Shown: piece by piece, positions 13,697 through 64,000 of the stretch
Layout: each line of letters opens with the position of its first letter
Position numbering within the stretch: the first letter of the stretch is position 1
IMG/VR virus record: IMGVR_UViG_3300025897_002116
Span: 8,953 to 72,952 of that record
Reading direction: 5' to 3' (one strand)
Length of the DNA: 64,000 bases
Origin: a virus
The notes under the pieces: generated by a model
What the model saw: only the letters and a program-made list of their open reading frames with translations
Told to the model about the DNA's origin: nothing
Databases searched by the model: none
Position numbers and translations under genes: made by a program

Positions 13697-13753
13697 ATAA
13701 CCTTTGTTTTTAAATGTAACTAAATATACGAAATTTAACTTAGAAAAACAACT
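13694..13753 (-). promoter_or_regulatory. diverged early/middle promoter cassette
   Basis: Minus strand AGTTG...TTCGTATATTTAG...AAAGGTTAT-ATG. Confidence 0.7.
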
Positions 13754-25447: not shown

Positions 25448-25454
25448 AACTTAC

Positions 25455-30110: not shown

Positions 30111-30556
30111 GCTTCAAAAAATCCGATTGCATCTAGAGCATCCATAAAATCTTTTTGTCCAAATTGCTTAGAATTTTTCATATCCATTCTATATGTTTGA
30201 TCAGAAGGAAATTGCTTTATTTTTCTTTCTTCTTCTGTAATTTCTATGGCTTTAACAGAAGACCATTTCCAATTTGTTTTATTTGTTCCATCTATAAACA
30301 CCATTCCTTTAGCTGGTAATGTAACCGTTGATGGAAGCCAGGTTTGCTTATTTGAGTCTTCAAACATTAAATCTTTGTATAACTCAGGGGATGTTTCAAT
30401 TGCATCAGTGATAACTTTGCTTCCTTTCACTAACTCGGTACTAGACGTAAAACCACATCCCAGGCATAGCCATGTTGTTAGTTTTTCACTAAGTACTTGT
30501 TCATAACATGCGTTACCGTTGCATCGGCCGCATTCTACTAATTGGTCTTTATCCAT
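30107..30556 (-). CDS. zinc-finger hypothetical protein
   Basis: CGRC...CLGCG. Confidence 0.65.
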   Translation of the reverse strand: MDKDQLVECGRCNGNACYEQVLSEKLTTWLCLGCGFTSSTELVKGSKVITDAIETSPELYKDLMFEDSNKQTWLPSTVTLPAKGMVFIDGTNKTNWKWSSVKAIEITEEERKIKQFPSDQTYRMDMKNSKQFGQKDFMDALDAIGFFEA

Positions 30557-31838: not shown

Positions 31839-31839
31839 C

Positions 31840-33285
31840 TTAATAACCAGTTAATTTATGCTTAATGTACTTTGAAGGTCTTTTTTTAGTCTTAATTAAA
31901 TCAAATCTAGATCTAGGTTTAAATTTATCAAAAGCTTCATCTAATGTTTCAACTATATTTTTACACATAGCAGATGCAGACATTTGTGACTCATCTGATG
32001 TCACCCACTCTCTGCCTTTAAGACCTCTTTTTTCTCTATCTTCAGAAGAAAGGTTGTAAACCTTTTCTATAGCCTTAGCTACATCTTCAGGTTGACATCT
32101 ATCATCGAAAATATAAGGGGTGGTTGGGGAGCCTGTAAGTGAAATATTAGATGGGAAAACCGGTTCTACCCACTCCCCACATTCTTTTACAGTACCTCTA
32201 TGGTTAGAAGGAAAATCAGCGTCAAAATCTATCCACTTACCGTCTTTTTCAAATCTCATTTGATCTTGCATACCTCCGGTTACATTACCGATAATCATCT
32301 TACCAGCCATCATAGATTCAGTTAAACTTAATCCCCAACCTTCGTTAGAAGAAATTAAAACCGTAACATCTGAGATATTATACATGAGGTTCATTTGACT
32401 AGGATTAATACGGGCCTGTGAAAAATACACATTAACGTAACTTGGATCGGTTAATGCCTCTTTTACAGCTCTTAGATCAGTTCCATTATTGTCACTAACA
32501 TGAGTATGCATTATAAGAGCACATTTTTTTGCTTTTTCTTCTCCAATTAAGTCACAGAAAAGTCTATACGCAAAAATTACATCAGCAGGTTTTTTTCTTT
32601 GAATATTTCTAGAATTGAAAAATACTATAAATTCAATATCGTCTCTACCAAGAGTATTCTTTTTAAACTCTAAAAGATTTTCATATAGAGAATGCTTAGA
32701 ATCTATAGGGAAAAAATCATTTTCGTTAATTCCATGAGGAACATACTTTAGTATCTTACTATCGGCTTTTTCACCTAGGACTAATCTATTAATATTGTTA
32801 GTTTGTTTTGAAATTGCCATAAGTACATCAACTGAATCATAATAGTTGACATTATACCCTGGGGCTGGGTAGTCATCCCATATATTGAGCCAGAAGATTG
32901 GTATCTTGGACCTAATTTCCCTTTCTATTTGGAATAACCATACCCAATATCTTGGATCGGTAAAGATAAAAATAGCATCAGGTTTCTCTCTTTCAATTAA
33001 CGCTCTCATTAACTCAGCATCTCCGTAACCATTGTTCGGCAGTACCTGTACAAGTGAATCTGTGATTCCTATTATTTTGTTTACCTCCTCTGATAGATCG
33101 TAGATTTTACCAATCTCAGGATGCTTTACAGCGGCTCCTACATTGAACCAATTAAAGTGCTGTGCTGTACCGACTGTGAACTCTCTTGCCATTGTGGCAA
33201 TTCCGGAGTTCATTCTGATATCATCACATAAAAGTAAGATCTTTTTCCGATCCTTCTTTTCGATATAACGAAACTGTTCTTTCAT
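31840..33285 (-). CDS. GT-B glycosyltransferase (GT4-like)
   Basis: VPHG, RNIQRK, SSNEGWGLSLTES. Confidence 0.85.
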   Translation of the reverse strand: MKEQFRYIEKKDRKKILLLCDDIRMNSGIATMAREFTVGTAQHFNWFNVGAAVKHPEIGKIYDLSEEVNKIIGITDSLVQVLPNNGYGDAELMRALIEREKPDAIFIFTDPRYWVWLFQIEREIRSKIPIFWLNIWDDYPAPGYNVNYYDSVDVLMAISKQTNNINRLVLGEKADSKILKYVPHGINENDFFPIDSKHSLYENLLEFKKNTLGRDDIEFIVFFNSRNIQRKKPADVIFAYRLFCDLIGEEKAKKCALIMHTHVSDNNGTDLRAVKEALTDPSYVNVYFSQARINPSQMNLMYNISDVTVLISSNEGWGLSLTESMMAGKMIIGNVTGGMQDQMRFEKDGKWIDFDADFPSNHRGTVKECGEWVEPVFPSNISLTGSPTTPYIFDDRCQPEDVAKAIEKVYNLSSEDREKRGLKGREWVTSDESQMSASAMCKNIVETLDEAFDKFKPRSRFDLIKTKKRPSKYIKHKLTGY

Positions 33286-37662: not shown

Positions 37663-38652
37663 CTAAGTAGAGAGGTTTTTCTTGAAAATAATCTTTCTCC
37701 AATAATTATTTAATTCACTTAGTAATAAACCAGCTTCACCAAGTTCAGAACGGTTATCGGGATATCCTATTTCTTTATCATAATCAAAATCTTCTACATC
37801 TTCTATGAATTCATACATATCAGGATTAACTCTCTTTAACTTTGGAATATCCCTTCTCCAAAGATGTGAAGGTAATTGTGTTTGGGATTTATATAAATTA
37901 TTTATATGGTCATCTGGTAGTTCGTTATCTCCTGTAAATGAATGAATCATTTTAGTTCCCATTTGTCCTATGAGTGTTTGATAAGTGGCAAGTGAAGTAT
38001 GTAGTATACCATCTTCTTTATCTAATACTAAATCAGCAGGCATATTTATAACCTTCATACTATCAAGAAGTTCTCGTAAAGAATTAACATTAACTATATA
38101 CGATTGAGCTCCTGGTGCTTCAAATCTTCTGATATGCTGTAATCTACCATTCAAATTTATTCCTCGTATTTCGGGTGTTGCTCTACCCAACCAGAGTATA
38201 TCGAATGAAAGTTTTATAATATCTTCTACCAATAGAGTGTACTCACCATCTTGAATAGAATTAATTAATGCAGTTGTTGGTCTAGCATCATCTTCTAAAA
38301 ATAAAAAATATCCTAGTGAATTTCCATTAGAATCGAATTCATTCAAAGCAATCTCATACGCCTTCTGATGAGATAATGCAACTCCAATAATATTTTTAGA
38401 AAGATTCCCTGATGGGTCTATAAATGTATCCAATCTACCAGTTTGTATCATAGATTTGATATCAAGATCTCTACCCATTATAGCATCTACAAATTCATAT
38501 TCTAAATCAGACCATTCCCAAGCTTTAGTAAATTCCTGTCTTCTATAACTATCCTTTTCGGATATTACATAAACTTTATCTGCTCCAAAATTTTGTAAGT
38601 GGGCAATATTAGTCTTTATCGACACTCTTAATTTCCTTTGGCAAGAATTCAA
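37663..38652 (-). CDS. glycosyltransferase family 25 (start uncertain)
   Basis: VYVIS...RR, FVDAI.G, GVALSH, FLEDDA, GAQSY. Confidence 0.75.
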   Translation of the reverse strand: MNSCQRKLRVSIKTNIAHLQNFGADKVYVISEKDSYRRQEFTKAWEWSDLEYEFVDAIMGRDLDIKSMIQTGRLDTFIDPSGNLSKNIIGVALSHQKAYEIALNEFDSNGNSLGYFLFLEDDARPTTALINSIQDGEYTLLVEDIIKLSFDILWLGRATPEIRGINLNGRLQHIRRFEAPGAQSYIVNVNSLRELLDSMKVINMPADLVLDKEDGILHTSLATYQTLIGQMGTKMIHSFTGDNELPDDHINNLYKSQTQLPSHLWRRDIPKLKRVNPDMYEFIEDVEDFDYDKEIGYPDNRSELGEAGLLLSELNNYWRKIIFKKNLST

Positions 38653-50731: not shown

Positions 50732-50786
50732 ATATAACCTTTTAATTATAACTTAAATATAAGAACTTTTACTCAAATAAACAACT
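50729..50786 (-). promoter_or_regulatory. diverged promoter cassette
   Basis: AGTTG...TTCTTATATTTAAGT...AAAGGTTATAT-ATG on the minus strand. Confidence 0.65.
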
Positions 50787-50832: not shown

Positions 50833-51093
50833 TTACATTTCTCCGTAAAGATCAAACTTTTCGGGTTCGGGCTCTTCTATCAATATTTCATTTTCCTTTA
50901 TAGCAAATAACTTACCATTTAAAGGCTCTAGTCTATAATGACCTTTGAATTGTGTTTTTCGCATATAAGCAGTTAGTGTTGCTACAAGGCCTGTGATAAC
51001 TGTTGCTTTGTCTATTGTTAACTCCCAGCTATCACCAGGAGGAACTCTTTTAGCTATAAGTTCATTTTGCTCTTCTATTATTTTCTCAGTCAT
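50833..51093 (-). CDS. hypothetical phage protein
   Basis: 86 aa ORF. Confidence 0.65.
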   Translation of the reverse strand: MTEKIIEEQNELIAKRVPPGDSWELTIDKATVITGLVATLTAYMRKTQFKGHYRLEPLNGKLFAIKENEILIEEPEPEKFDLYGEM

Positions 51094-52652
51094 TATTTTC
51101 CTTTAATATAATCTAAAATTTCGTCTTGAATATCAGGTTCTATATAATCTTGAGATCCTGGGTTAGAGTTTTGTGGGGATAGTACCCATCCTTCTTTTTT
51201 AGCTAGTTCTAAAACACCAGAAACTTCACTATTAGAATTAGCTGTATCACCATTCATTGACCCCAAAAGCACAGGGGCTAATTTGGTTTCTGGAATAGAA
51301 TCCCACCACTCTTTTAATGTAGGGAAGGCTTCAAGAAAGTTTTTATTTCTTCTTATATCGTATTGAGTATAGAAGGATTTCCAATCTCTTTCTCTACTTT
51401 CAAAAGAGGAAGTATGTTTATGTCCAGTCTTGATTTCTCTAATATAGGCAATAAGTCTTACTATACCATCTTTCTCCATCTCTAAGAGATACTGAGTATT
51501 CAATTCTAGCCATTTTTCGATGTGATCTGCACGTTCTTTTCTAATATATTCCGGTAAGGTTACTATAGACTGGAAGCTTGGAAATCTTAAAATATTAAAA
51601 GAGCAGATTGGAAAATGATCTCCATATTTTTGTTTCAATTTTATTACTTCGTCCATAAATTCTGTTATAGAGAATAGGCACAAAGCATTAATTGTCATCA
51701 TAACATTTAAAGATTTGATATTAGCTTCATCACATACTCTGTACATATTAGATAACCACTTATCCCAAATTAAATTATACCGTATATACTCAGACTGCAA
51801 TCCTGTAGATTCATTAGATGTATAAAGATGAAATGATTTGATATTATGACTTGCTTTAATTAACTCATCTAAGAGTCTATCTTTCTGCCCTAAATTAGAA
51901 TTAACTGCAAACTCAACTTCACACTCTTTATGTGTTTCCCACCACTTCATTAGTTTCCAAAAATCTGGGGACATGGTAGGTTCACCGCCTGTCACTCTTA
52001 ATTCACGTAAACTAAATTGTAGCTCGGCTTCCCACCATTTATAAAAAGCTTCTACATAAGGATTATTTTCATTTTTCCTGCCGTATGGCATGGCATGACC
52101 ACCATCGTGTTGGAATGCTACCGCACCATCGGATACCAGGTTTTGATACGGGCCGAATTGTTTGATATCTTTTTGCCAAGTAGTTGAAAATGAAGCATTG
52201 CAGTAAGAACAAGCAAAATTACAATTAGGGTCAAATGCAATTTCTAAAGTCTTTAAGTCAACATCTTCTTGCCATCCAAATTTTGACTTAGCATCTTTAA
52301 GTTCCTCATCGGTATAAATTACAGATTTGTAAACTCTATCTGATATTTTATCTTCCCCTAGGTCTTCAATCTTCCAGCAATATTCACACTCTTTTGGTCT
52401 TTCTCCTTCGAGCATCTGCTTTCGGATAAGCTTCTTATAACTAGTGTTGTGTATTGCTTTATAACTTTGGGCTACTTCCTCTAAAGGTATCTTATGTGCG
52501 GGTGGGTGATGGCAGCTTGCAGTAGTACCATTTCCTAGCCATATAGTAGCGTTATACCATTTGGCTCCGCAGAAAGCAGGGGATACAGAGTTTATTGCTC
52601 TATCTCTGTATTTCTGGTAGCTTTCGTTTCCTTTTTTTGCGAATATTCCCAT
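51093..52652 (-). CDS. radical SAM protein with N-terminal twitch/SPASM-like domain
   Basis: CNFACSYC, TGGEPT; N-terminal CGAKW, SCHH, CEYCW. Confidence 0.88.
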   Translation of the reverse strand: MGIFAKKGNESYQKYRDRAINSVSPAFCGAKWYNATIWLGNGTTASCHHPPAHKIPLEEVAQSYKAIHNTSYKKLIRKQMLEGERPKECEYCWKIEDLGEDKISDRVYKSVIYTDEELKDAKSKFGWQEDVDLKTLEIAFDPNCNFACSYCNASFSTTWQKDIKQFGPYQNLVSDGAVAFQHDGGHAMPYGRKNENNPYVEAFYKWWEAELQFSLRELRVTGGEPTMSPDFWKLMKWWETHKECEVEFAVNSNLGQKDRLLDELIKASHNIKSFHLYTSNESTGLQSEYIRYNLIWDKWLSNMYRVCDEANIKSLNVMMTINALCLFSITEFMDEVIKLKQKYGDHFPICSFNILRFPSFQSIVTLPEYIRKERADHIEKWLELNTQYLLEMEKDGIVRLIAYIREIKTGHKHTSSFESRERDWKSFYTQYDIRRNKNFLEAFPTLKEWWDSIPETKLAPVLLGSMNGDTANSNSEVSGVLELAKKEGWVLSPQNSNPGSQDYIEPDIQDEILDYIKGK

Positions 52653-52682
52653 ATTATGTTACTATCCCCCTCATGTAAATTT

Positions 52683-53591
52683 TTACTGTCTTAAAGTTTT
52701 GGCAATTCTGAACTCTGGTGAAGTAAAGAATTCTGGTATCAGCATTGAATGCGTTGCTCTAATTGGATTAATATCAATTCCTCCTCTACGGGTGTATAAA
52801 CAAGATACCATTAACTGCTCAGGTTGAAAAGCATCATATAGGTGTCTAAATATCATTTCACATATTTCTTCATGAAAATGTGATACAGTTCTATGAGAAA
52901 CTATATATTTAGCGATTGATCCGGATGATGGTATTTTCTTTCCTATAATTTTTATGTAAACATCTCCCCAATCCGGTTGATTTGTAACTCTACAGTTTGA
53001 TCGAAGTAAATTTGAGGATAATTTTATTTCACTTGATTCTTCAGCAACTTCTTCTACTGTTAGTTGAGAAGCATCGGATTGAAAAGCGGTAAAGTCTATT
53101 TGATCTAAATCTGTTGCATCTTTTAAATCTACGTACCCTTCAAAAGAAAGCGGGTGACCATCATCATTAGATGTATAAAAAGAAACAGTTGTATCAGTTT
53201 CTAATAATTCATCTAGATCCCTTTTGACTCTTGCTTCAATTCCAGAAATACAATCTGATGCGGTCTTGCCGATTTTAGTCATATTAAGTGAATTCAAGTA
53301 AAGTTTAATTGACTTAGACTCTACGTGATTATATGAATCAGCAGGGCAAACTATTTTAAGCATTCCGGCTACGGGTTGACCTTTTTCGGTTATTGCTGAG
53401 ACTTCATATGCATTCCAGGTATCTACCCCAACGAACTCTTCTCCGGTTAAGCTATATGCTTCTCGATTAAGGTATCGAGGAATTTTCACTAATAGGGATG
53501 CATCGTATTGATCTGAGTAACCATCACCGCCTACTTTACCTAAATGTCTGTTTGCTAGACTTACTACTTCTTCTTGATTCTTATCTGCCAT
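52683..53591 (-). CDS. queF: NADPH-dependent preQ0 reductase (bimodular QueF)
   Basis: D.WNAYEVS, VESKS.KLYLNS, LLRSNCRVTNQPDWG, FHEE.CE, YTRRGG.DINP. Confidence 0.93.
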   Translation of the reverse strand: MADKNQEEVVSLANRHLGKVGGDGYSDQYDASLLVKIPRYLNREAYSLTGEEFVGVDTWNAYEVSAITEKGQPVAGMLKIVCPADSYNHVESKSIKLYLNSLNMTKIGKTASDCISGIEARVKRDLDELLETDTTVSFYTSNDDGHPLSFEGYVDLKDATDLDQIDFTAFQSDASQLTVEEVAEESSEIKLSSNLLRSNCRVTNQPDWGDVYIKIIGKKIPSSGSIAKYIVSHRTVSHFHEEICEMIFRHLYDAFQPEQLMVSCLYTRRGGIDINPIRATHSMLIPEFFTSPEFRIAKTLRQ

Positions 53592-53595
53592 AATT

Positions 53596-54114
53596 TTATT
53601 TAATAAATTCCAATATTTGCTCTACTCTTTGCATAGGAGAACCAGTAACTTTTATCATATTACTGTTTATACTAGCTAATTGATTTCTAAATTCTTTATC
53701 TATATCTCTTCTCCACTCTTCATTAATACTCCTAACTCCATCATCAACTGATTTGAACTCTATAGGAAAGTAAACATAATGTGAATATTCATTTTTAATT
53801 CTTGACCAAGTATCATCAACAAACGCTACGGTTGCAGCGCTTGCTTTATTCATATACTTAGTATATACTACTAAATCCATATAACATCGATCTAACACAC
53901 AGTTATACGGTTTAAGTAATGCTTCTAAATGAAAACTAGAGATTGCTAATTGAGTTTCCGAAGTTCCTTGTTCATTAATAGGAAACCCAAACTCTTTGAC
54001 CGTACGAGTAGATTCATTTATAAACTCGTATTTAGGTAATTTACTTTTCAGTAATTCATATACTGTAGTCTTACCGGTACTGCTTGCTCCTATTAATGCT
54101 ATTTTCTTTACCAT
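53596..54114 (-). CDS. P-loop nucleotide kinase (AAA_28/NadR-like)
   Basis: GASSTGKTT, LDRC..D, DDGVR; start revised to MVKKIALIG. Confidence 0.75.
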   Translation of the reverse strand: MVKKIALIGASSTGKTTVYELLKSKLPKYEFINESTRTVKEFGFPINEQGTSETQLAISSFHLEALLKPYNCVLDRCYMDLVVYTKYMNKASAATVAFVDDTWSRIKNEYSHYVYFPIEFKSVDDGVRSINEEWRRDIDKEFRNQLASINSNMIKVTGSPMQRVEQILEFIK

Positions 54115-54665
54115 GTAACCTTTTTTAAAAACATAACCCACATACTTAAACTCGTATCTCTAAATTTAAGGAATAATTCTTCAATTTCCAACTCTTCAGC
54201 ATTAAATTTTCCAGTTGCTATAACTCCTCCTTCGTCTACTCCTTTAGTTACCCTATGTAGTACACAACCTGCTTGTTTGTAATTACCTCGGTAAGCTCTT
54301 ATTTGAGGATCTTTACCTTTAAGTTCTGGATACTCGGTTATAAGTCCTGGATGACCATTAATTATCTTGTATTTTTCACAGAGCTCAGGAGGAATCACTC
54401 TTAACCAACCATGTAGAGTTATAATTGGATTATCAAACTTACTTAAAAATCTTTCATAATCCTCAACAGTAGGTTTATTAGGGGTATAGCGTACAATACC
54501 TTTATTATTAGCCCAGGAAAGTATCTGCTTATTTATTTTCCTCAAATTTTCAGGTCTCTCATTAGTAATTATTCTATCAGGCAGTCTTCCTAATTTTTCT
54601 ACTAAATCTACTATTTCGGTACCTGTTTGACTAAAAAATACAATCCAGGGTTTATTCTTATTCAT
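54108..54665 (-). CDS. PurN-like formyltransferase (putative preQ1 formyltransferase, DpdN-like)
   Basis: FSQTG.E, LHGWLRVIP, INGHPG, GKDPQ, GCVLH.V...VDEG. Confidence 0.8.
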   Translation of the reverse strand: MNKNKPWIVFFSQTGTEIVDLVEKLGRLPDRIITNERPENLRKINKQILSWANNKGIVRYTPNKPTVEDYERFLSKFDNPIITLHGWLRVIPPELCEKYKIINGHPGLITEYPELKGKDPQIRAYRGNYKQAGCVLHRVTKGVDEGGVIATGKFNAEELEIEELFLKFRDTSLSMWVMFLKKVTW

Positions 54666-55449
54666 TCCAAAACTTTCTAAACTTTTTTATATTTACTTTT
54701 ATTAACTCATTACTTATCTCCGCTAAAGGAGTATTGATTAATGTGAATAGCTTTTGAGATTCCTTACTCCATAATCCCGTTTCTCCGTACTTAATATTCT
54801 TAATAGCATGTACTACAGGGTTAGATGTATCCATTGAATAGATCCATGGATAGTTTCTATAGTACATTCCTTCTTGGGGTAATGAACATCCTAATAGGTG
54901 ATGAGGTTTATTCTCGTTCAATATCCCATCTTTTAATAAGTCCCCTAATAGTTTTACTCTGCCGAGCATCCAACTAACATACTTATTTGGATGAGGAACA
55001 GACTTACTATAGTAGGAATAATCGAAAGAGATTGCAATCATATCTACGTTAGTAGATTTATCCATGTACTTGTAACAATCGCAGATTTCTTTATAGGATT
55101 TTCCTTGTACAACTCCTATACTTTTGCCTGGAACATCATCGTGCTCTTTATACCATTTCTCTGCTTGTCGCATAGTCTTTTCTGCGTTCTCTAATGCATC
55201 AGGAATAATGTACCATTCCGGACGTAATTTTTTTACCCATTTAGCAAAACTATCAGCATCAAAAGCTTCTTCCAATTCAAAGATAGAATTATCTAAAATA
55301 ACTTCTCTACCTTTTCTTAAAGCTTCTTTAAACTGATCTAGATATTCTTTATCTTCCTCAAGTAGGTGTACTAATGCGTACGAGTAATCTGTAACTTTAT
55401 TTACTTCGTCGAAAAGACTCTTAGGGCTCTCATGTGCTATTCGGATCAT
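54658..55449 (-). CDS. TGT-fold deazaguanine transglycosylase (DpdA-like, probably DpdA3 type)
   Basis: LDNS.FE, IIPD, GVVQG, HHLLG, SMDTS; adjacent to queF and near folE. Confidence 0.75.
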   Translation of the reverse strand: MIRIAHESPKSLFDEVNKVTDYSYALVHLLEEDKEYLDQFKEALRKGREVILDNSIFELEEAFDADSFAKWVKKLRPEWYIIPDALENAEKTMRQAEKWYKEHDDVPGKSIGVVQGKSYKEICDCYKYMDKSTNVDMIAISFDYSYYSKSVPHPNKYVSWMLGRVKLLGDLLKDGILNENKPHHLLGCSLPQEGMYYRNYPWIYSMDTSNPVVHAIKNIKYGETGLWSKESQKLFTLINTPLAEISNELIKVNIKKFRKFWNE

Positions 55450-55522
55450 CTAGTTTCTTTATTTTATTAACCCAGTACTGTAAACCTGGGCTTGTTATAT
55501 TCTTTAATATACGTGTGCTATT

Positions 55523-55717
55523 TTAATCATTTAAAATTTCTACAGTTTTATTAATATCTGTCATAGCATTATTCATAATCTCCATAGCTTGGTCTAATTT
55601 AGCCTGATAGCCTTTAAAGTCAGCTGCTTGTTCTACAGCTTGTTTAGCTACTGAGTAAGGTATTACATCTATGCCTAGGTTCTTAACATATATTTTATGT
55701 TCGTCTAAATTTATCAT
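55523..55717 (-). CDS. hypothetical protein
   Basis: 64 aa ORF. Confidence 0.6.
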   Translation of the reverse strand: MINLDEHKIYVKNLGIDVIPYSVAKQAVEQAADFKGYQAKLDQAMEIMNNAMTDINKTVEILND

Positions 55718-56238
55718 TAGAAAAATTGTTTTAAGTTAGGTCTAAAATAATTAATAGATTTCATTACTTTTTTATCTCTTGATCGATAAACGATATACCT
55801 TCCATTCGCAATTTTCTCAAAATGACAGGCCTCACCTTGTTCCTTACTTCTAGTGCTGACAGTAAGTATGGCTTCTGCTTCAGAAATACAAGCTTTTGAT
55901 AGATTGCTCGCTTGCACTTCTTGATAAGCCGGCCATATCTTATCCTTAAGGCCGTGTAACATAACACCGTTCCCAAGGGAAACGTAAGTAATATCACAAA
56001 GAGCATCCAAAACTTCCACGATGTTTCCATCTTCGCAAGCTTGTTTATATTCCTCAAGTTCCTCGAGGATAAAATTGTAGACGAATTCCCATTCCTCTCT
56101 TTTCGGTATTGTTGGTTCATAGTTATTTGGTTTTCCAAAAGTAGCATTAAAAATTTCTACTTCATCTACAAAAGGTACCCCATTAACCCATACAGGTAAT
56201 TCTTCTTCTTCTTTGAATAATGATAATTGTTCACCCAT
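55717..56238 (-). CDS. MazG/PRA-PH-like nucleotide pyrophosphohydrolase
   Basis: EELEEY...EVLDALCDITYV, EV..SNLSK, K..K; N-terminal QLSLF. Confidence 0.85.
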   Translation of the reverse strand: MGEQLSLFKEEEELPVWVNGVPFVDEVEIFNATFGKPNNYEPTIPKREEWEFVYNFILEELEEYKQACEDGNIVEVLDALCDITYVSLGNGVMLHGLKDKIWPAYQEVQASNLSKACISEAEAILTVSTRSKEQGEACHFEKIANGRYIVYRSRDKKVMKSINYFRPNLKQFF

Positions 56239-56239
56239 T

Positions 56240-56440
56240 CTAGTATACTTTAATAATTCTAGATTCTGTTAAGCTAATAATCTTAAAGTTAGTCTCACTA
56301 AGCTCTTCTAACATTTTATATGTCTTAGTTTCTGCTTCAGTTCCTGACATTGCGTCTACTAGGTAGATCTCTTTTACTTTCTGAATTCTGCCTCTATCGT
56401 TTTCTTTTTCAAACTGTGCTGTTACTTGCCAATAATTCAT
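56240..56440 (-). CDS. DUF4494-like protein
   Basis: KVKEIYLVDAMS.TEAE. Confidence 0.7.
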   Translation of the reverse strand: MNYWQVTAQFEKENDRGRIQKVKEIYLVDAMSGTEAETKTYKMLEELSETNFKIISLTESRIIKVY

Positions 56441-56454
56441 AATTTTATATACTT

Positions 56455-56808
56455 TTAGGTTCTATTATAATCATCTTCTAATCTCACTATATCAGTCTCT
56501 TCAAAAGAAGTACCTGTTTGTACTTCAATAAAAGTTACAGGTGCATCTGTTTTGTTCCAAGCCCTGTGTTTAGCTTCTACCGGAATTTCTAATGTATCTC
56601 CTGACGTTAATAAATGGTCTACCCCGTTGAGTATAACATTAAGTCTTCCTTTTACTACCGTCCAACTCTCGGAACGTTCTGTATGAAACTGGTACGATAG
56701 TCTTTGTCCAGGATCTATAGTTAATTCTTTAACTTTACAGAACGGGGTCCTGAGTATTACTTCAAAATACCCCCAGGGTCTTTCTTCAAAATCTATTAAT
56801 GTATACAT
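56455..56808 (-). CDS. cupin, mannose-6-phosphate isomerase type II C-terminal-like
   Basis: RPWG.F, PGQRLSYQFH..RSESW, HR..N, EVQTG...E.DIVRLEDDY. Confidence 0.85.
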   Translation of the reverse strand: MYTLIDFEERPWGYFEVILRTPFCKVKELTIDPGQRLSYQFHTERSESWTVVKGRLNVILNGVDHLLTSGDTLEIPVEAKHRAWNKTDAPVTFIEVQTGTSFEETDIVRLEDDYNRT

Positions 56809-57497
56809 CTACCTGCTAATTCTATGTTTTTATAAAACTCAGCTCTTGCTGAATCTTCGTCTAGGAAGCAACCAGATAATTTAGCTGTTTGCATCGAAGC
56901 ACCATTATGTTTAATACCTCTACAACTAACACAATTATGTGTAGCTGAGATCATTACAGCAACCCCTAGGTTACCTTCACAAATTTTATTAACTGCATTG
57001 TGAATTGCAACTGTAAGTTGTTCTTGAATTGCTCCTCTTCTACCAAAGTGCTCTACAATCCTGTTTAGCTTAGATAACCCAACTACCTTGCCATCATTTG
57101 AGGGGATATAAGCTATGCTTACTTTTCCTCCAATAGTCTGGTGATGGTGACTACACATTGAAGTGACTGGGATAAGGCTTTCTTGAACTATACCGTCATA
57201 CCCGTCGGAAGGAAAGGTAGTAATTTCGGTCATAGGTTCAAATCTACCCTTCCATAAGTCGTTTACGTATGCTTTCGCAACTCTTCTAGGAGTATCAGAT
57301 GAATTAGGATCATTTTTCCAATCACATCCCAGGGCAGTTAAAAACTTTCCGAATGCTTTTGCAGCGTTCTTTATAATCTCTTCTTTTTCTGCGGTGCTCA
57401 ACACACCCATTTTTCCTTTGGCAGCTAACTGCGAAGATACACCGTTGGCGTAACCTTCTTTAACTAGTTCGGTACCTTCTATAAACTTTTTTGACAT
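56796..57497 (-). CDS. folE: GTP cyclohydrolase I
   Basis: DTPRRVAK, SMCSHH, VVGLSKLNR, QEQLT, H.CVSCRG, RAEF. Confidence 0.95.
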   Translation of the reverse strand: MSKKFIEGTELVKEGYANGVSSQLAAKGKMGVLSTAEKEEIIKNAAKAFGKFLTALGCDWKNDPNSSDTPRRVAKAYVNDLWKGRFEPMTEITTFPSDGYDGIVQESLIPVTSMCSHHHQTIGGKVSIAYIPSNDGKVVGLSKLNRIVEHFGRRGAIQEQLTVAIHNAVNKICEGNLGVAVMISATHNCVSCRGIKHNGASMQTAKLSGCFLDEDSARAEFYKNIELAGRCIH

Positions 57498-57537
57498 CTA
57501 TAACTTTTTAAATATACTTAAATATACGAACTTTTGA

Positions 57538-57939
57538 TTAAATATCCAAATAGTCCTGTATTTCTTTTGAATCTTTTTTCTCCCATGGGTACACTATCCA
57601 TCCTGAAGTATCTTGTAGTTCTTGGGCAAAATAATCCGGTTTTACTATAGATGATAATTTATAATGTAGGGTAGCAAACTTACAGTCAAACATCGTCTCT
57701 CTCAACTCAAATAATGTTTTACCACTATCCGCTATATCATCAATTACTAGCAGTCTAGGAGGGTGTAAATAAGTGAGTTCCTTGTATTTAGTACCGAACC
57801 TATGTGAATAGAGAATTGCTAGAATTGTGCCGCCTCTTGGTATTCCAGCTACGTAGTCTATAGGTTCTTCTATTTGTGCATAAATCTTATCTAATAAGCC
57901 ATATACATCTTCCCAACTTAAATAAACTTTTTTATTCAT
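57538..57939 (-). CDS. purine phosphoribosyltransferase (Gpt-like)
   Basis: LSW, GIPRGG, LVIDDIADSGKT, WIVYPWE. Confidence 0.85.
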   Translation of the reverse strand: MNKKVYLSWEDVYGLLDKIYAQIEEPIDYVAGIPRGGTILAILYSHRFGTKYKELTYLHPPRLLVIDDIADSGKTLFELRETMFDCKFATLHYKLSSIVKPDYFAQELQDTSGWIVYPWEKKDSKEIQDYLDI

Positions 57940-57956
57940 AACTATAAGATAGTAAA

Positions 57957-58499
57957 TTATCTCTGTTTTAACAACTTTAGAATTTGCTTTACTGTTTTAC
58001 TCCCTACTTCTACTTCATGGTACGGTAAATTATGTTCCTCTAATTTAGCTTTGCATAATTCATCAATCTCTATAGATTGTTTTAAATCCTGGAATCTTTC
58101 TGCTTCATTAATTTCAGTATTAGATCTCTTCAACAGGATGTTTAAATTGTCGTAATTGTTATGTAAGTCAACAACCATTTTATGGAAGGACTCTCCGTAA
58201 TATTCTGCTGGATACCCTTTAGTGTAGTAGCTGTGATATATAGTTGAGAACATTATAGGTGAATCAATAACAATGTAATCTACTTTACCGTAGGATTGTG
58301 CTATACCTCTATGTTGGTTAGCAAATACGTATAACTGATCTTGTATAGCAGGGTAATTTTTATCCCATGCTAAAGTTTTGGGAAATTCATAAGGATTATT
58401 ACAACTAATATGTTTTTTCTTTAATTTGTAAGTAATTCCTGCTGAAATAGATGATTTTCCAATTCCTGGTCCTCCGAATAAGTTTATGAGTATACTCAT
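57957..58499 (-). CDS. P-loop kinase (AAA_28/NadR-like)
   Basis: INLFGGPGIGKS, IDSP, R.Q. Confidence 0.75.
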   Translation of the reverse strand: MSILINLFGGPGIGKSSISAGITYKLKKKHISCNNPYEFPKTLAWDKNYPAIQDQLYVFANQHRGIAQSYGKVDYIVIDSPIMFSTIYHSYYTKGYPAEYYGESFHKMVVDLHNNYDNLNILLKRSNTEINEAERFQDLKQSIEIDELCKAKLEEHNLPYHEVEVGSKTVKQILKLLKQR

Positions 58500-58724
58500 T
58501 TACCCTAGTAGTTGTCTAATCAAACTAAACATGTAACCAACCATACCTACTACATTAAGAAGAGATAGATTGTATTGCTTTGTTTTCTGTGTCTGAATAG
58601 TTAATAAACCTAATCCTATGAAGGAACCAAGTTTACCTAGTGGTGTATCTATAAAATAAGGTGATACCATCATTAATGCCGTTCCTAAATAAAGAACTCC
58701 ATACTTATAAAAAATGTCTTTCAT
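58500..58724 (-). CDS. small 3-TM membrane protein (possible PnuC/SemiSWEET-like half transporter)
   Basis: Three hydrophobic segments, K.YNL.LLN; 74 aa. Confidence 0.5.
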   Translation of the reverse strand: MKDIFYKYGVLYLGTALMMVSPYFIDTPLGKLGSFIGLGLLTIQTQKTKQYNLSLLNVVGMVGYMFSLIRQLLG

Positions 58725-59485
58725 GAAAATATTTCGTTTAAAATTGTTGATAGTCTTATTCCTGCTTGATATAATCTTTGGTCTATAATTGGTAGAACTT
58801 CATATACATAATCGTACGATAAGTAAGATCCTGCAGTAGTTTCATAAATTTTAGGTACATATGAATGAGATTCCTTAGACCATTCTAATGCATTTCCTTG
58901 AGGAAAATCTGCTTTATTATTAAATTGGTTCATAAGCTTATCAGCATATTCTTTATAACTCATCTTATAATCATCAATGATACCTGCATCCCATAAATCA
59001 TGTAGGTTAGTCCAATTCTCAGCTCCTTTTCTTCCTTTGAAGTTTACTTTAATTTTGTTACCTCCCCAATCTTCTTCTCTACCTGTGTGAAGTGGTTGAT
59101 GTATATCACCCACCATATGAACTAAGTACTTTAAGTAGAATCTCTTCATATCCTCAGGAGCAGAAGGTAATTCTAATATTGCAATAGCTCTTTCTATAAT
59201 CATTACAACGTTTTCTTGAGTATGTTCTATTTCATCATACTCTTTATCTATTGGGAGATTAATATAGTGCCACTTAGCAAACTCATCATATTCTGGGTTA
59301 CTTCTCATCTCATCAGCCCAAGTACTAGCATTTGCAAGTGATTGTCCGTCTAATAAATCTCTAACTTTTTCTCTAACCTCTTCTGTTAAGTTATTTTCTG
59401 CTATTTCACCAACTACTCTATGACCAGTCTTACCCCAACCTAATAGATTGAAAGGTATTAATAAAAGTATAAATATATTTTTCAT
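58721..59485 (-). CDS. S1/P1 nuclease with signal peptide
   Basis: WGKTGH, WADE, WHYIN, HMVGDIHQPLH, GGN, NLH..WD. Confidence 0.93.
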   Translation of the reverse strand: MKNIFILLLIPFNLLGWGKTGHRVVGEIAENNLTEEVREKVRDLLDGQSLANASTWADEMRSNPEYDEFAKWHYINLPIDKEYDEIEHTQENVVMIIERAIAILELPSAPEDMKRFYLKYLVHMVGDIHQPLHTGREEDWGGNKIKVNFKGRKGAENWTNLHDLWDAGIIDDYKMSYKEYADKLMNQFNNKADFPQGNALEWSKESHSYVPKIYETTAGSYLSYDYVYEVLPIIDQRLYQAGIRLSTILNEIFS

Positions 59486-59492
59486 AGTAAAT

Positions 59493-59520
59493 AAAAAAAG
59501 GGGAGTGTTTAAGCTCCCCT
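59493..59520 (-). terminator. intrinsic terminator after the TonB receptor gene
   Basis: Minus strand GGGGAG-cttaaaca-CTCCCC-TTTTTTT. Confidence 0.85.
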
Positions 59521-59530
59521 AATTGTTTCT

Positions 59531-62266
59531 TTAAAAGTTATAACGTAAACTTGCGTTCCAAGTTCTACCAAATCCAAACCATACTGAGTTTCTTACATCA
59601 ACGCCTTCCCAGGTTACAGAAGTATCATCAGCGTGAATATTTGAGTTAGATTCTGCAATATATGTTGTATTGAGTAAATTGTTAATATTTGCTCTTACAG
59701 TCCATCCTTTACCAATTTTTCCAGTTATACCAAAATCAACTAAACCAAAAGAAGGTAATTTAAGTGCTCCATTGTTATCAGGGTTAGTAAACTCTGAGTC
59801 AGTAATAGAATAATCAGCATACAGCCCATCGACAAATCTATAATCTAAATCTAGTGATAAGTGTTTTCCAATTTTTTGATCTACTCCTATATTACTAGTA
59901 AATTGTGCGGCATCTCCTACTTTAGCATCTTTTAGGTAAAGTGTACCCGTTCCAATTGATTCTTGATTTTCATCAAATAGTTCTGAAGTAAAATCTTTAG
60001 TATATCTCCAATCACCGATTGATAACATACCTGTAAATCTAGTAGAACTAGATAACTGATATTTACCTTCAAATTCTATACCATTGTGTCTTACATCAAT
60101 ATCTTTAAATTGAGCTGATCCATCTACACCAAATTGGTTAGATAAAGAACGAGTAACAAATCTATTACCCCAAGTTGTAGAATATGCATTAACTTTAAAT
60201 GATAAATCTTTACCAATAAAACCATACCCTAATTCAATAGATTTAATTTCCTCATTTTGTAAATCAGGATTAATATCATTTATATAATTAGGAAATACAG
60301 CACCAAATTGAGGTTGACGTGAAATATACCCTGTATTAAAGAATACATTTTGTTTTGCATCAATGTTGAAGTTAGCACCTCCTTTAATATAACCACCACG
60401 TTGGTTTTGTACCTCTGATTCTGGGTTATCTGGTACGTCAAAGTAGTCAATTCTTTGAAATGCTTGATTTGAAAGTCCAGATTGTACTACGGCTGTTAGT
60501 TTATCACCACCATATTCAAACATAGAGTTTACACCAGTCCATCCAACTTTACCTACATTATGATAATCAATCTTAGGTCCATCTAAACCGGTACTACCAA
60601 ACGGACTAGCCGCAACAGTTGTGTTGATTATTTGACCATTAGAGTTCTTATTACCTGTTGAGTAGTACCCATCTAATCCCATAAGATTGTTTAGTACTCT
60701 ATAATGCTGACCTGTATATTTTCTTAAATCAATACCAATAGATGCTTTAACTTTACCAAACTGTCCTTCTAAGTTAGAAATACCACCAACCCAATTATGT
60801 GAGTTCATTGATGCTCTTCTAATAAGTACTTCTCTGTTAACACTTGAATCTCTAAATCCGTTTGAACCAATTAAGAGTCCTGAGAAAGCTGAAATATCAC
60901 CAGTATAACCACTAGTGGTTGATTGGTTATGTGCAACAATAGCATCAAAATTAATTGAACCGTCTGGATTTCTTGAACCTCTACCATTTTCTGAGTAATG
61001 CTCAGTAAGGTCTATTCGATATGGAAGTATATCAGAATCAGATGCTCTATAATTGGCTCCTCTTGGACCTGTTCCTCCACCTCTACCAGCTGAACCATAT
61101 AATGATGTGGCTAATTTAAGCTTAGAATTAATTTTATAATCCCAGTTAAAAGTTGCTAATGGTTTATTATAGAAGTTTCTTCTCATTGAGAATTCTTCTC
61201 CATTTAGTGTACCTCCGTTTGAGTTCCATCTAGTATCAATTCCTTCATCACCGAAATTTTGGTAATCTCTAATAGAAACCCATACATCTCTTTGATGGTG
61301 CCATTGACCTGCTCCTAAGAATGAAAAGTTTAACTCATGTTTAGAACCTTCTGGTGCATATCCAATAGCAGTGAAATAATTAAATCCTTCTCCTGAGGTA
61401 TTATTGATATACCCATTACCGCTCCATTTAGATAGAAGTACAGATGTTGCCCATCCACTTTCGCTCTTACCGGAATTGTAAGAAGCTACAGTCTTTGAGT
61501 ACCCATTATTACCCACCATTTGTGAGATTGAGCCTCCTTTTTCTTTATCAACAGCTTTAGTAAAAATGGAAATAGTTCCTCCAACTGAAGGGACTGCCAA
61601 TTTAGTTGCTCCCAATCCTCTCTGAATTTGAATACCACTAGCAACATCAGTTAAACCTTGCCAATTACTCCAATACAGTCTACCATTTTCCATATCGTTA
61701 ACTGGTTGTCCGTTAATTAAGATAGAAGTATTAGTTTGATCAAATCCTCTTAAAGATATTCTTGAATCACCATAACCACCGCCTTGCTTAGTAGCATAGA
61801 CACCAGGTACTTTATTCATAATTTCAGGAAATTCCTGATTTCCACCTTTAAGTTGGATATCTTTTGAAGATATTGATGATACGGCAATAGGGGTTTTTCT
61901 TCCTACAGCAATATCAATTACTCCTGAGGTAACTACTACAGCATTTAATTCTGCAATATTTACTTCCATGGTAACATCTACAATTGATCTAGCTCCGATT
62001 ACAACCTCTTGTTTGTTATAACCTACAGCACTAAAAACAAGAGTGCTTCCAACTTCTGGTATATTTAAATCAAAAACACCATTGAAATCTGCAATAGTTC
62101 CAATATTGGTATCCTTAATTACTATACTTACCCCAGGTATACCTTCGTTATTTTCGTCTACCACTTTGCCGGATACAGTACGTTCTTGTGCGTTTACAAT
62201 TAGAAACAGAAAACTTAGGGAAATAGTCCACAGAAGTCTTGTTCCTGATTTTAAATAATTTTTCAT
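59531..62266 (-). CDS. TonB-dependent outer-membrane receptor (Bacteroidota type)
   Basis: Signal peptide, VSGKVVD...GIPGVSI N-domain, plug (PGVY, ISLRG, LINGQPVND, QIQRG, GGTI), barrel ending GRTWNASLRYNF. Confidence 0.93.
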   Translation of the reverse strand: MKNYLKSGTRLLWTISLSFLFLIVNAQERTVSGKVVDENNEGIPGVSIVIKDTNIGTIADFNGVFDLNIPEVGSTLVFSAVGYNKQEVVIGARSIVDVTMEVNIAELNAVVVTSGVIDIAVGRKTPIAVSSISSKDIQLKGGNQEFPEIMNKVPGVYATKQGGGYGDSRISLRGFDQTNTSILINGQPVNDMENGRLYWSNWQGLTDVASGIQIQRGLGATKLAVPSVGGTISIFTKAVDKEKGGSISQMVGNNGYSKTVASYNSGKSESGWATSVLLSKWSGNGYINNTSGEGFNYFTAIGYAPEGSKHELNFSFLGAGQWHHQRDVWVSIRDYQNFGDEGIDTRWNSNGGTLNGEEFSMRRNFYNKPLATFNWDYKINSKLKLATSLYGSAGRGGGTGPRGANYRASDSDILPYRIDLTEHYSENGRGSRNPDGSINFDAIVAHNQSTTSGYTGDISAFSGLLIGSNGFRDSSVNREVLIRRASMNSHNWVGGISNLEGQFGKVKASIGIDLRKYTGQHYRVLNNLMGLDGYYSTGNKNSNGQIINTTVAASPFGSTGLDGPKIDYHNVGKVGWTGVNSMFEYGGDKLTAVVQSGLSNQAFQRIDYFDVPDNPESEVQNQRGGYIKGGANFNIDAKQNVFFNTGYISRQPQFGAVFPNYINDINPDLQNEEIKSIELGYGFIGKDLSFKVNAYSTTWGNRFVTRSLSNQFGVDGSAQFKDIDVRHNGIEFEGKYQLSSSTRFTGMLSIGDWRYTKDFTSELFDENQESIGTGTLYLKDAKVGDAAQFTSNIGVDQKIGKHLSLDLDYRFVDGLYADYSITDSEFTNPDNNGALKLPSFGLVDFGITGKIGKGWTVRANINNLLNTTYIAESNSNIHADDTSVTWEGVDVRNSVWFGFGRTWNASLRYNF

Positions 62267-62413
62267 TAGCAGTAATTTTTAAATTTTAAATTTTAAATAT
62301 TGAACAAATTAAATTAACTTAAATTAAATTACCCAAACTGGTAAGTACCTTAACTAAAATAGTGTATATACTTAAAAATTCCGATTTGAAGTAATTTTTT
62401 CTTCACATTACAT

Positions 62414-62584
62414 TCATGTAGTTGAGATAACCCAACCTTCTGTATGCACGTATAGTTTTTTTGATTTTTTTTCTACTAAATCTAGTTTAGCTGTTAACAA
62501 TTCCCACTGAGGGTATGTTATTCCGGATGGCCCTATAGATGTTATAAACACTTGTAACCAATTTATGAATTCCTTTTTGCTCAT
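62414..62584 (-). CDS. small hypothetical protein (56 aa, MSKKEFINWLQ...)
   Basis: Manual translation; starts 1 nt after the nuclease stop. Confidence 0.55.
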   Translation of the reverse strand: MSKKEFINWLQVFITSIGPSGITYPQWELLTAKLDLVEKKSKKLYVHTEGWVISTT

Positions 62585-62585
62585 A

Positions 62586-63173
62586 TTATTTGACTCTATA
62601 GTCTACCCAATCTGTTCCTTTAGTATCTATGTTTGGAAATTCATAGATTCTTATTGTACCGTTAATGTCTATAGTCTTTCTAAAAGATGTAGGAACCATT
62701 GCACCTGTGGGTAATGTAGTGGTATTATCGTCAAATAAAACTTCGACTTTAACTTTTACATCTACCCCGAAGTAATTAGCGGCGTCTCTTTCAAAAGCTT
62801 CTAACTGACTCCACTGGCCTCTATTTAAACCTTGATGCTGTAGAACTGAGTTGAGATACGAAAAAGATTGATGAAGGGATTCTTTTGTACAGCTAAAAGA
62901 AGCTGCCGGAGCAAGGTGACCCTTATCGTAAACATTATCTTTATAATCTTTATCATCAGAGGTACTGATGCCTTCTGGGACCCAAAAACTCTTTCCTGAT
63001 CTAGAAAATGTTCCGTTAGGGCAGGCTACAATGTAGGTTAATTCTAAAGGCTGTTGTGCTATTTCAGAGTAAACTACAGTAAATATATCTGTCTTGATTG
63101 TCTTGATTTGTTGTGCAGATATAGCAATTGAACATAACAGTAAAAATGTGCTTATACTATATTTTTTATTCAT
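62586..63173 (-). CDS. DNA/RNA non-specific endonuclease (NucA/EndA family) with signal peptide
   Basis: YDKGHLAPAA, SF.Y.N...Q...LNRGQW..LE, VPT.F.K. Confidence 0.9.
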   Translation of the reverse strand: MNKKYSISTFLLLCSIAISAQQIKTIKTDIFTVVYSEIAQQPLELTYIVACPNGTFSRSGKSFWVPEGISTSDDKDYKDNVYDKGHLAPAASFSCTKESLHQSFSYLNSVLQHQGLNRGQWSQLEAFERDAANYFGVDVKVKVEVLFDDNTTTLPTGAMVPTSFRKTIDINGTIRIYEFPNIDTKGTDWVDYRVK

Positions 63174-63240
63174 ATGTAATATAACTTTTAAAAATTTAAT
63201 TTATATCTAAATATAGTCAAATTAACTGTAAACGGCAACT
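63171..63240 (-). promoter_or_regulatory. promoter cassette
   Basis: AGTTGCC...ACTATATTTAGATAT on the minus strand, upstream of the nuclease. Confidence 0.7.
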
Positions 63241-63255
63241 ATGAATGTACTTTTT

Positions 63256-64000
63256 TCAAAAATTAACTCCAACACCAAATTGAACAAATTCTCTTATTGG
63301 ATCCATATCAAATTTTAAAGTAAAGTTTTTAATGTCATACATAGTTCCTACTTTTAAGGTAGTAAACTTTCCATTAGATTTGGGGAATGTAATTTCTCCT
63401 ACTACATCTTCTCCTCTCCAGAAAATATCTTCTGATCCAAAGCCTATCATACAGTGTATACCAATTCTCTCAACCCTCCTACCTATACCGAAGTAAAAGG
63501 TTCTTTCTTTAATTAAATCATCTATTAAAGGAAAATCAATATCATCAATTTGCCCATCTTTGAAAAAAGTAGAACGATCAGGTTCATAGGTTGAATGAAA
63601 GTCCATAATAAAGTATATTTTATTACCAACAGCAAAGTACCCACCTAGTTGTTTATTTGTAGAATACAGAAACCCAACATTTACGATGGGTTTTTTACCT
63701 TTAATGGTATCTGTTTGTCCGTCTTCAAATACATAAACACGTGCAGGTTGTCTATATCCCTGAGGGGTGTAATAATTATAATCTATATATGTACTATATC
63801 CGTAATTTGGAGCTCCCCATCTTCCCCATCTACCGTAACCCCAATACGGGTCATAGTTATTGTACATATTAGAGTAGTAATATGGATTTTGACCGTAAAA
63901 ATTAGATTGGTTATTTAGATTATTCGGTTGGTATGTAGTTGAAGAGTTAGATTTAGTTGTAGTAGGTGGGTTACTCCTCCAAGTACTTTGGGTATTTGTG
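63256..64000 (-). CDS. putative outer-membrane beta-barrel protein, 5' end beyond the window
   Basis: Frame stays open to 64000; Y/G/N-rich N-region, alternating beta pattern, ends VQFGVGVNF. Confidence 0.6.
   Translation of the reverse strand, partial: TNTQSTWRSNPPTTTKSNSSTTYQPNNLNNQSNFYGQNPYYYSNMYNNYDPYWGYGRWGRWGAPNYGYSTYIDYNYYTPQGYRQPARVYVFEDGQTDTIKGKKPIVNVGFLYSTNKQLGGYFAVGNKIYFIMDFHSTYEPDRSTFFKDGQIDDIDFPLIDDLIKERTFYFGIGRRVERIGIHCMIGFGSEDIFWRGEDVVGEITFPKSNGKFTTLKVGTMYDIKNFTLKFDMDPIREFVQFGVGVNF

Follow-up and report, generated by a model that had tools for sequence, protein, structure and literature searches.

A host-type TonB-dependent receptor beside exported nucleases in a large marine phage: a candidate module for nucleic-acid uptake

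Near one end of the IMG/VR viral record IMGVR_UViG_3300025897_002116 lies a gene for a 911-aa TonB-dependent receptor, flanked by genes for two nucleases predicted to be exported: a NucA-type DNA/RNA non-specific endonuclease and an S1/P1-type zinc nuclease. The stretch analysed (64,000 nucleotides, hereafter the window) corresponds to bases 8953-72952 of this 72,952-base record, whose CheckV completeness is 44%. The phage is large, marine and uncultured, and its hosts are Flavobacteria-like bacteria. Comparison of the locus with viral and cellular relatives makes it somewhat probable, in our judgement, that the phage carries a small host-derived module for nucleic-acid uptake and periplasmic digestion. 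The receptor is the predicted core of this module, the S1/P1 nuclease, a three-helix membrane protein and the NucA-type nuclease are predicted optional add-ons, and a kinase and a phosphoribosyltransferase (PRTase) are best regarded as neighbours. Nucleic acid is proposed as the substrate from gene neighbourhoods only.

A first-pass annotation of this DNA had described a larger utilisation locus harvesting extracellular DNA or RNA. Comparison supports its location in a phage and its links to nucleases and to loci resembling the ddb locus of Bacteroides thetaiotaomicron. In contrast, the kinase and the PRTase are not supported as members of such an uptake unit, the three-helix protein shows no likeness to a transporter, and most phages with the receptor lack a nuclease.

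An intact receptor exchanged between hosts and phages

The receptor gene, which contains no stop codon, encodes an N-terminal carboxypeptidase-regulatory-like domain (CarbopepD_reg_2), a Plug domain (PF07715, E 1.2e-13) and a 22-strand TonB_dep_Rec barrel (PF00593, E 5e-12), the last two exceeding the curated Pfam cut-offs. The leader, read by eye, is MKNYLKSGTRLLWTISLSFLFLIVNAQ. In the alignment, the TonB-box region ELNAVVVTSGVIDIA, the plug and the C-terminal end (...WNASLRYNF) are nearly identical to those of cellular orthologues, and the ratio of non-synonymous to synonymous substitutions (dN/dS) against five phage relatives is 0.09-0.17. With its full open reading frame (ORF), domains and terminal signals kept, the receptor is intact, as originally described; it is under purifying selection and its function is predicted to be retained.

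Relatives of the receptor occur on 134 viral contigs of IMG/VR, from which 79 loci (63-90% identity) were retained, and GTDB gave 330, the best 80 of which (58-72% identity) were retained. The cellular matches are chromosomes of Polaribacter, other Flavobacteriaceae, Cytophagales and Balneolales. Judged by this similarity, the phage protein is a copy of a receptor that belongs to the core chromosomal genes of marine Bacteroidota. The same receptor is found, at 64-65% identity, on short contigs of a metagenome-assembled genome (MAG) labelled Candidatus Paceibacterota (L110) and of genomes labelled Bacteroidaceae (L081 and L156), which are probably mis-binned.

In a FastTree phylogeny of 141 receptors (82 cellular, 58 viral and that of the window), viral and cellular rows are interleaved and well-supported branches force at least seven changes of label; the window receptor falls in a viral-only clade of 17 rows. 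This topology indicates that the receptor has been exchanged several times between hosts and phages. Eight related contigs (L075-L077 and L162-L166) share the gene order of the window and have kinases 83-90% identical to its own, together with receptors that lack the N-terminal domain and are 65-66% identical to the window receptor. Since the receptors of the syntenic L075-L077 (824-855 aa) belong to a different clade, alleles have been swapped within a fixed slot.

Likeness to SusC/RagA reaches 95.4 bits with TIGR04056, against a cut-off of 368, and covers the first 163 model positions only. Neither TonB nor ExbB was found in five phage records, three of them complete, so the receptor would have to use the energiser of the host.

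Exported nucleases beside the receptor in phages and hosts

The NucA-type protein has an N-terminal hydrophobic leader, recognised by eye, and its DKGH motif and Asn residue align to the DRGH of Serratia nuclease and to EndoG. The S1/P1-type protein keeps the HxxGDxHQPLH and NLHxxWD motifs. Its residues W17, H22, H123/D127/H133 and H162/D166, which we take to be the zinc ligands, are invariant in the alignment. Signal-peptide cleavage fits, because W17 aligns with residue 1 of all eight matched solved mature S1/P1 chains. Signal peptides had been attributed to both nucleases at the outset, and these observations bear that out.

The association of these genes was examined in a search of viral contigs anchored on the kinase, in which the receptor is not presupposed. 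It returned 80 loci, of which the 56 with at least 2.5 kb of upstream sequence were evaluable; receptor matches below 45% identity were dropped and matches anywhere in the locus were counted. The receptor is present in 39 of the 56 loci. It accompanies S1/P1 in all 15 loci that have this nuclease, NucA in all four, and the three-helix protein in 19 of 20. When the search was anchored on S1/P1, two of seven viral loci contained S1/P1, the three-helix protein and the kinase with no receptor in the 1.6-3.8 kb of upstream sequence at hand. L068, L075 and L077 each have a NucA homologue immediately before the receptor. In viral contigs such homologues surfaced only through loci fetched with other genes, a single-protein NucA search of these contigs having given none.

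A tree of 96 S1/P1 proteins places all 16 viral, all five receptor-linked cellular and three other cellular sequences in one clade of 24 rows with 99% support. The pairing of receptor and S1/P1 therefore looks like a single module common to phages and hosts. Among the best 80 of 532 cellular S1/P1 loci, the receptor is directly upstream in five only, those whose enzyme is most similar to that of the phage (50-54% identity). All five are genomes of Flavobacteriaceae with a CNT or NupG nucleoside transporter; four also have a LOG-family gene, and one (Candidatus Arcticimaribacter contig L240) adds an Endonuclease_NS (NucA-type) gene.

Viewed from the receptor, S1/P1 is directly downstream in three of the best 80 cellular loci. 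In all three a CNT or NupG transporter comes next, and two of them also have a LOG-family gene; the kinase, the three-helix protein and NucA occur in none of the 80. In 18 of 74 cellular loci the orthologue has an exported nuclease or phosphodiesterase no more than three genes away. These comprise ten EEP nucleases (PF19580) in Flavobacteriaceae, two or three genes away, five NPP phosphodiesterase lipoproteins in Balneolaceae, and three S1/P1 enzymes. In these ten Flavobacteriaceae loci a second receptor gene comes after the EEP gene, at a distance of two genes from the orthologue; in the one genome examined this second receptor is paired with a DUF5689 protein.

Uptake of nucleic acid and the readings that compete with it

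Uptake and digestion of nucleic acid could proceed as follows. Early in infection, the NucA-type nuclease and the receptor would be made from the promoter cassette upstream of the NucA gene (Table 1). Host machinery would insert the receptor into the outer membrane and host TonB-ExbBD would power it, so as to bring outside DNA or RNA fragments, or nucleotides, into the periplasm. There the two nucleases would cut imported fragments to mononucleotides, and host phosphatases and nucleoside transporters would complete import. Phage nucleotide enzymes of the region would then feed DNA synthesis: the kinase and, in relatives, ribonucleotide reductase and an enzyme of the IMP-dehydrogenase/GMP-reductase family.

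Several observations weigh against this scheme. S1/P1 is missing from 24 and NucA from 35 of the 39 receptor-bearing phage loci, so the receptor does not need phage nucleases; the co-occurrence across phages foreseen in the first-pass annotation holds when read from the nucleases to the receptor, but not in the other direction. The expected nuclease linkage of cellular homologues is likewise partial: it is seen in the 18 loci listed above, but 56 of 74 have no nuclease neighbour, and the commonest cellular context (DUF3108, M23 peptidase, pgi) is uninformative on substrate. The receptor is only 35% identical to the Ddb-like gut transporter discussed below and 22% to the DUF5689-paired marine receptor, the DdbC sequences themselves being outside this comparison. 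Family searches found no partner of DdbD (DUF5689), SusD or lipoprotein type among the proteins of the locus, and the initial caveat that a SusD partner is missing holds. Neither an inner-membrane nucleoside transporter nor a nucleotidase is recognisable in the phage, and the three-helix protein resembles no transporter in Pfam and fold searches. A terminator parts the receptor gene from S1/P1. Finally, both nuclease leaders look, by eye, like ordinary type I leaders, which would place the enzymes in the periplasm and require the receptor to pass oligonucleotides.

The receptor might instead be a maintenance copy of a general importer of nutrients such as iron chelates, peptides, sugars or vitamins, expressed during host shut-off, with the nucleases as independent accessories; the psbA genes carried by cyanophages are a parallel. 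In marine Bacteroidota the receptor is a single gene, nearly universal, that lacks a constant functional neighbour. As most viral and cellular copies have no adjacent nuclease, this explanation stays alive. Repeated host-to-phage exchange and allele swaps in one slot would also fit a matching of the host envelope, and uptake of carbohydrates has been proposed for other phage receptors, according to the accessible part of that report (PMC9723777). We nevertheless find it rather unlikely. It does not account for the occurrence of S1/P1 and NucA in these phages only beside the receptor, or for the single clade of receptor-linked S1/P1 enzymes from phages and cells, with nucleoside transporters alongside. 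Moreover, three exported phosphodiester-hydrolase families adjoin the orthologue in three host lineages, and the nearest distant homologue anchors nuclease loci.

It seems still less plausible, indeed improbable and without specific support, that the locus serves to exclude rival phages, the exported nucleases, with or without the small membrane protein, degrading superinfecting DNA in the periplasm while the phage's own DNA, modified with 7-deazaguanine, is spared. A precedent for attack on superinfecting DNA is T4 Imm, which acts with host endonuclease I. The leader peptides of both nucleases would suit this role, as would the 7-deazaguanine cluster directly downstream and the three-helix protein, which is of a mostly viral family and adjoins S1/P1 in 17 of 19 S1/P1-bearing loci, window included. 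However, exclusion leaves unexplained the receptor, the commonest and best conserved part of the locus. The cellular receptor-S1/P1 pairs have nucleoside transporters and a LOG-family gene as neighbours, which points to salvage, and jumbo relatives with receptor and S1/P1 show no folE or DpdA-like genes nearby. S1/P1 enzymes are also known to prefer single strands.

The locus in its phage genome

We attach negligible probability to an artefact in which the contig end is mis-assembled host DNA or a prophage flank: the locus does lie 0.8-6.5 kb from the contig end, since the window reaches the end of the record, and the receptor does share 58-72% identity with chromosomal genes, but all junctions over 54000-64000 are bridged by contigs of two runs from other studies that extend beyond the window end, folE and DpdA-like synteny holds across divergent contigs, the receptor is internal in complete phage genomes of 250-300 kb, the promoter cassette in front of the unit is shared with the rest of the phage, G+C content is uniform (0.27-0.37 over the window), every gene of the region is on the minus strand, and cellular neighbour genes are absent from the locus. 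The independent bridging contigs, the gene order kept in divergent contigs and the internal position in complete relatives together exclude a host chimera for practical purposes, and the locus is phage-borne, as first assumed.

The order NucA, receptor, S1/P1, three-helix protein, kinase, PRTase, folE, cupin, MazG and DpdA-like is kept in the divergent contigs L077/L165 and L166. L162 has the same order with NucA and cupin undetected, and L163 and L164, of the same synteny group, are cut at contig ends. Four relatives of 252-297 kb, 99-100% complete by CheckV, have a single terminase apiece; the receptor lies deep in the interior of three of these genomes and is missing from the fourth. Marine and estuary water yielded near-identical sequence in 14 DNA runs, which belong to at least 11 studies. 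Contigs of three runs join position 63524 of the window to 59465 via 24 other letters, a joint that may reflect either a short repeat or a relative whose genes are ordered differently.

Among the PHROGs matches across the window are DNA polymerase, thymidylate synthase, GroEL/GroES, an exonuclease and an endolysin-like protein. Clustering of all receptor neighbours gives viral and cellular sets that are almost wholly disjoint. The viral set includes a clamp loader, a sliding-clamp-like protein, PolB, GroES/EL, ribonucleotide reductase, thioredoxin, a protein of the IMP-dehydrogenase/GMP-reductase family and a PD-(D/E)XK nuclease, whereas the cellular set comprises DUF3108, M23 peptidase, pgi and others. 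Positions 22206-33285 and 37663-38652 of the window hold glycosyltransferases and sugar-nucleotide enzymes (epimerase, UDP-glucose-dehydrogenase-like, heptose-isomerase-like), which may be involved in cell-surface remodelling or in sugar modification of DNA or proteins.

Among GenBank phages, a DNA search with the whole locus gave no match, and a protein search gave nothing above 35% identity. The best-matching record, MT837128 (L319), deposited as 'Bacteriophage sp.', was rejected as a phage example, being 99% identical to the Phocaeicola coprocola chromosome. This entry carries RadA and a Ddb-like nuclease locus and looks like bacterial DNA filed under phage.

Boundaries of the unit and neighbouring genes

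ORFs and Pfam searches recovered every gene previously listed for the locus (Table 1). The unit is bounded by two copies of a promoter cassette, one before the NucA gene and one before folE. This cassette, AGTTGNNTTT-N15-TATNTTTAR, was found by inspection and counted afterwards: the window holds 17 matches where 0.97 would be expected, a number that none of 100 shuffles reaches, and 16 of the 17 are on the coding strand. Many genes are preceded by a copy (for example at 2675-2708, 13720-13753 and 50753-50786), and the same type stands before phage replication genes. Its shape (TTG, about 19 nt, TAnnTTTA) recalls what we take to be the Bacteroidota housekeeping promoter, and the cassette probably represents one temporal class of phage promoters read by host polymerase. 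A sigma-70 scan gave promoter-like sites at a frequency not above that of shuffles (33 vs 35.0). The cassette upstream of the NucA gene and the terminator downstream of the receptor gene, both reported earlier, are real features, the latter a hairpin with a T-run.

The receptor gene is matched at 90-100% identity by contigs of two metatranscriptome libraries from two studies, a type of library that can contain DNA; examples are 193 nt with no differences and 225 nt with one, and neighbouring genes have little or no cover. Such matches do not demonstrate transcription, and the stretches without cover carry no weight either way. One RNA-library contig (X15) joins position 62217 of the window to 63260; in it the exported-protein gene ends next to where the receptor gene begins, and NucA and the 56-aa ORF are left out. 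This junction corresponds to the gene order of L002-L004. In these three loci, a full-length relative (289-298 aa) of the product truncated in the window is encoded immediately before the receptor, without an intervening NucA gene. The upstream protein carries a signal peptide, a linker rich in T/N/S and a stretch rich in Tyr/Gly/Trp/Arg (GYGRWGRWG); its C-terminal part is beta-rich, ends in ...VQFGVGVNF and resembles an outer-membrane barrel. It might be a surface partner of the receptor. The 56-aa ORF has one weak relative only (L049, 35%).

Table 1. Coordinates of the receptor locus, its edges and full-length upstream genes in related loci (window positions unless a locus is named)
Feature	Position	Strand	Basis
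Exported-protein gene, 3' part, cut by contig end	63256..63999	-	ORF; no convincing Pfam family
Promoter cassette (TTG ... TATATTTAG) before NucA gene	63207..63240	-	1 of 17 cassette matches
NucA-type DNA/RNA non-specific endonuclease, 195 aa, predicted exported	62586..63173	-	Pfam PF01223, E 3.5e-20
56-aa ORF, no signal peptide, no family	62414..62584	-	ORF
TonB-dependent receptor, 911 aa	59531..62266	-	Pfam CarbopepD_reg_2, Plug, TonB_dep_Rec
Intrinsic-terminator-like hairpin with T-run, between receptor and S1/P1 genes	59499..59520	-	
S1/P1-type zinc nuclease, 254 aa, predicted exported	58721..59485	-	Pfam PF02265, E 2.6e-65
Three-helix membrane protein, 74 aa	58500..58724	-	AlphaFold model
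AAA_28 P-loop kinase	57957..58499	-	Pfam E 1.2e-11
Small purine PRTase, 133 aa	57538..57939	-	Pfam; PDB 1vdm E 1e-9
Promoter cassette before folE, downstream edge of unit	57518..57551	-	Cassette match, 2 mismatches
FolE	56796..57497	-	Pfam
Full-length upstream exported-protein genes	L002:3469-4365, L003:5673-6545, L004:2866-3735		

The first-pass annotation had counted the three-helix protein, the kinase and the PRTase as members of the uptake unit. The unit is smaller than this, because the kinase is a backbone gene, the PRTase goes with the 7-deazaguanine cluster and the three-helix protein has no recognisable fold.

The kinase occurs without the receptor in 17 of the 56 evaluable loci, which makes it a backbone gene of these phages; 12 of the 17 show GroEL and no gene of the receptor-nuclease cassette. 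Its profile matches deoxynucleoside kinase (E 0.0047) and NadR (E 0.038) in the PDB, and its fold matches are thymidylate, adenylate and deoxynucleoside kinases and NadR. These matches assign it to the nucleoside/nucleotide-kinase fold, and the predicted substrate is narrowed no further.

The closest solved match of the PRTase is the purine PRTase 1vdm, among Gpt-type PRTases. The gene is seen only in contigs that also hold the folE/DpdA-like cluster, with which it travels, and it may serve the neighbouring 7-deazaguanine pathway instead. Positions 51093-57497 of the window hold a 7-deazaguanine DNA-modification gene set, with genes for FolE, QueF-like and DpdA-like (phrog_19058) proteins, a PurN-like formyltransferase, a second AAA_28 kinase, a twitch radical-SAM protein, a MazG-like protein and a cupin.

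AlphaFold predicts three helices for the 74-aa protein (pLDDT 77.6). It has no Pfam match at E values up to 10 and no fold match at E 0.001 or better, and a role as a PnuC- or SemiSWEET-like nucleoside transporter paired with a NadR-like kinase was rejected for want of any Pfam hit or fold match. A profile search gave 80 clusters for the family, nearly all small proteins, and its ESM Atlas neighbours are 67-100% viral. The sole long protein with a Pfam family among the 80 matches is P0025 (235 aa), in which a member of the family is fused to the C-terminus of dihydrofolate reductase (DHFR).

Significance and comparison with known systems

Dissolved DNA is a large pool of marine phosphorus and nitrogen, and large phages need many nucleotides while their hosts are often short of phosphorus. 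There is a real possibility, which we would not call probable, that widespread large ocean phages turn the infected flavobacterium into a scavenger of outside DNA by means of periplasmic nucleases and an importer of their own that is related to DNA-feeding and natural-transformation transporters. If so, this would be the first virus-borne polymer-utilisation locus, and dissolved DNA, including that of lysed neighbours, would be recycled straight into new phage genomes, which would tie viral lysis directly to renewed use of the nucleic acid that it sets free. The range of auxiliary metabolic genes would then extend from cytoplasmic enzymes and phosphate binders to a complete outer-membrane uptake step coupled to polymer digestion, and that of Ddb-type DNA-utilisation systems to marine hosts and viruses. 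The comparison also provides an uncharacterised core receptor of marine Bacteroidota with a substrate hypothesis that can be tested. Furthermore, the repeated movement of receptor alleles between phages and hosts offers a case for studying how compatibility is maintained in an envelope protein reliant on host TonB and assembly machinery.

A literature search that left subscription journals and supplements outside its scope gave no description of a receptor-nuclease cassette in phages. The closest functional parallel is the ddbABCDEF locus of B. thetaiotaomicron. As described in the accessible part of the preprint, it encodes three secreted nucleases, the TonB-dependent transporter DdbC, the DUF5689 partner DdbD and a further exported protein; depletion of outside DNA by this bacterium needs the locus, with its TonB-dependent transporter and secreted nucleases, and the system is related to the outer-membrane transporter of natural transformation in Riemerella anatipestifer (bioRxiv 10.1101/2025.03.18.642099). 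The window receptor is a full-length homologue, at 35% identity, of the Phocaeicola transporter found in MT837128. In Phocaeicola coprocola the genes after this receptor encode a lipoprotein, a relative of the C-terminus of a DUF5689 protein, an Endonuclease_NS and an EEP nuclease. Of 60 evaluable gut loci of this family, 57 have the lipoprotein, 39 the DUF5689-related protein, 26 Endonuclease_NS and six EEP. In gene content these loci match the build of the published Ddb-like loci, so far as the available text of the preprint sets it out. The phage locus further resembles them in holding leader-bearing nucleases (NucA-type and S1/P1), and marine orthologues of its receptor adjoin a pair of receptor and DUF5689 protein with EEP nucleases. 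It differs in being phage-borne, in having no DdbD/DUF5689 or lipoprotein partner, in the type of its nucleases (S1/P1 and a short NucA type) and in being known here from genes alone.

TonB-dependent receptors of phages have been reported in Mar_Mega_1 and LR745206, with carbohydrate uptake proposed (PMC9723777), and in Lak phages (bioRxiv 10.64898/2026.10.24.761521). As in the present case, these are full-length genes in large phage genomes, viewed in the accessible parts of both reports as auxiliary for the host envelope or for uptake. There, however, the import role is carbohydrate or left open, and nucleases are not connected with them in those parts. The LR745206 receptor is distant, with 31% identity over residues 98-303 only.

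The chromosomal orthologues of Polaribacter sp. HL-MS24, Flavobacteria bacterium MS024-3C and Candidatus Arcticimaribacter MAGs are much closer, with full-length identity of 58-72% and the same TonB box, plug and C-terminus. In Arcticimaribacter-type genomes the orthologue is placed with S1/P1, a CNT transporter and a LOG gene, and in L240 also with NucA. In contrast to the phage locus, most cellular copies have no nuclease neighbour, and none of the 80 is accompanied by the phage kinase or three-helix protein.

Cyanophages carry the phosphate-uptake auxiliary genes pstS and phoA. Like these, the receptor module would be a phage-borne means of host nutrient acquisition that feeds nucleotide supply. 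The host phylum and the membrane are different, and the source would here be polymeric or organic phosphorus, whereas in cyanophages it is phosphate.

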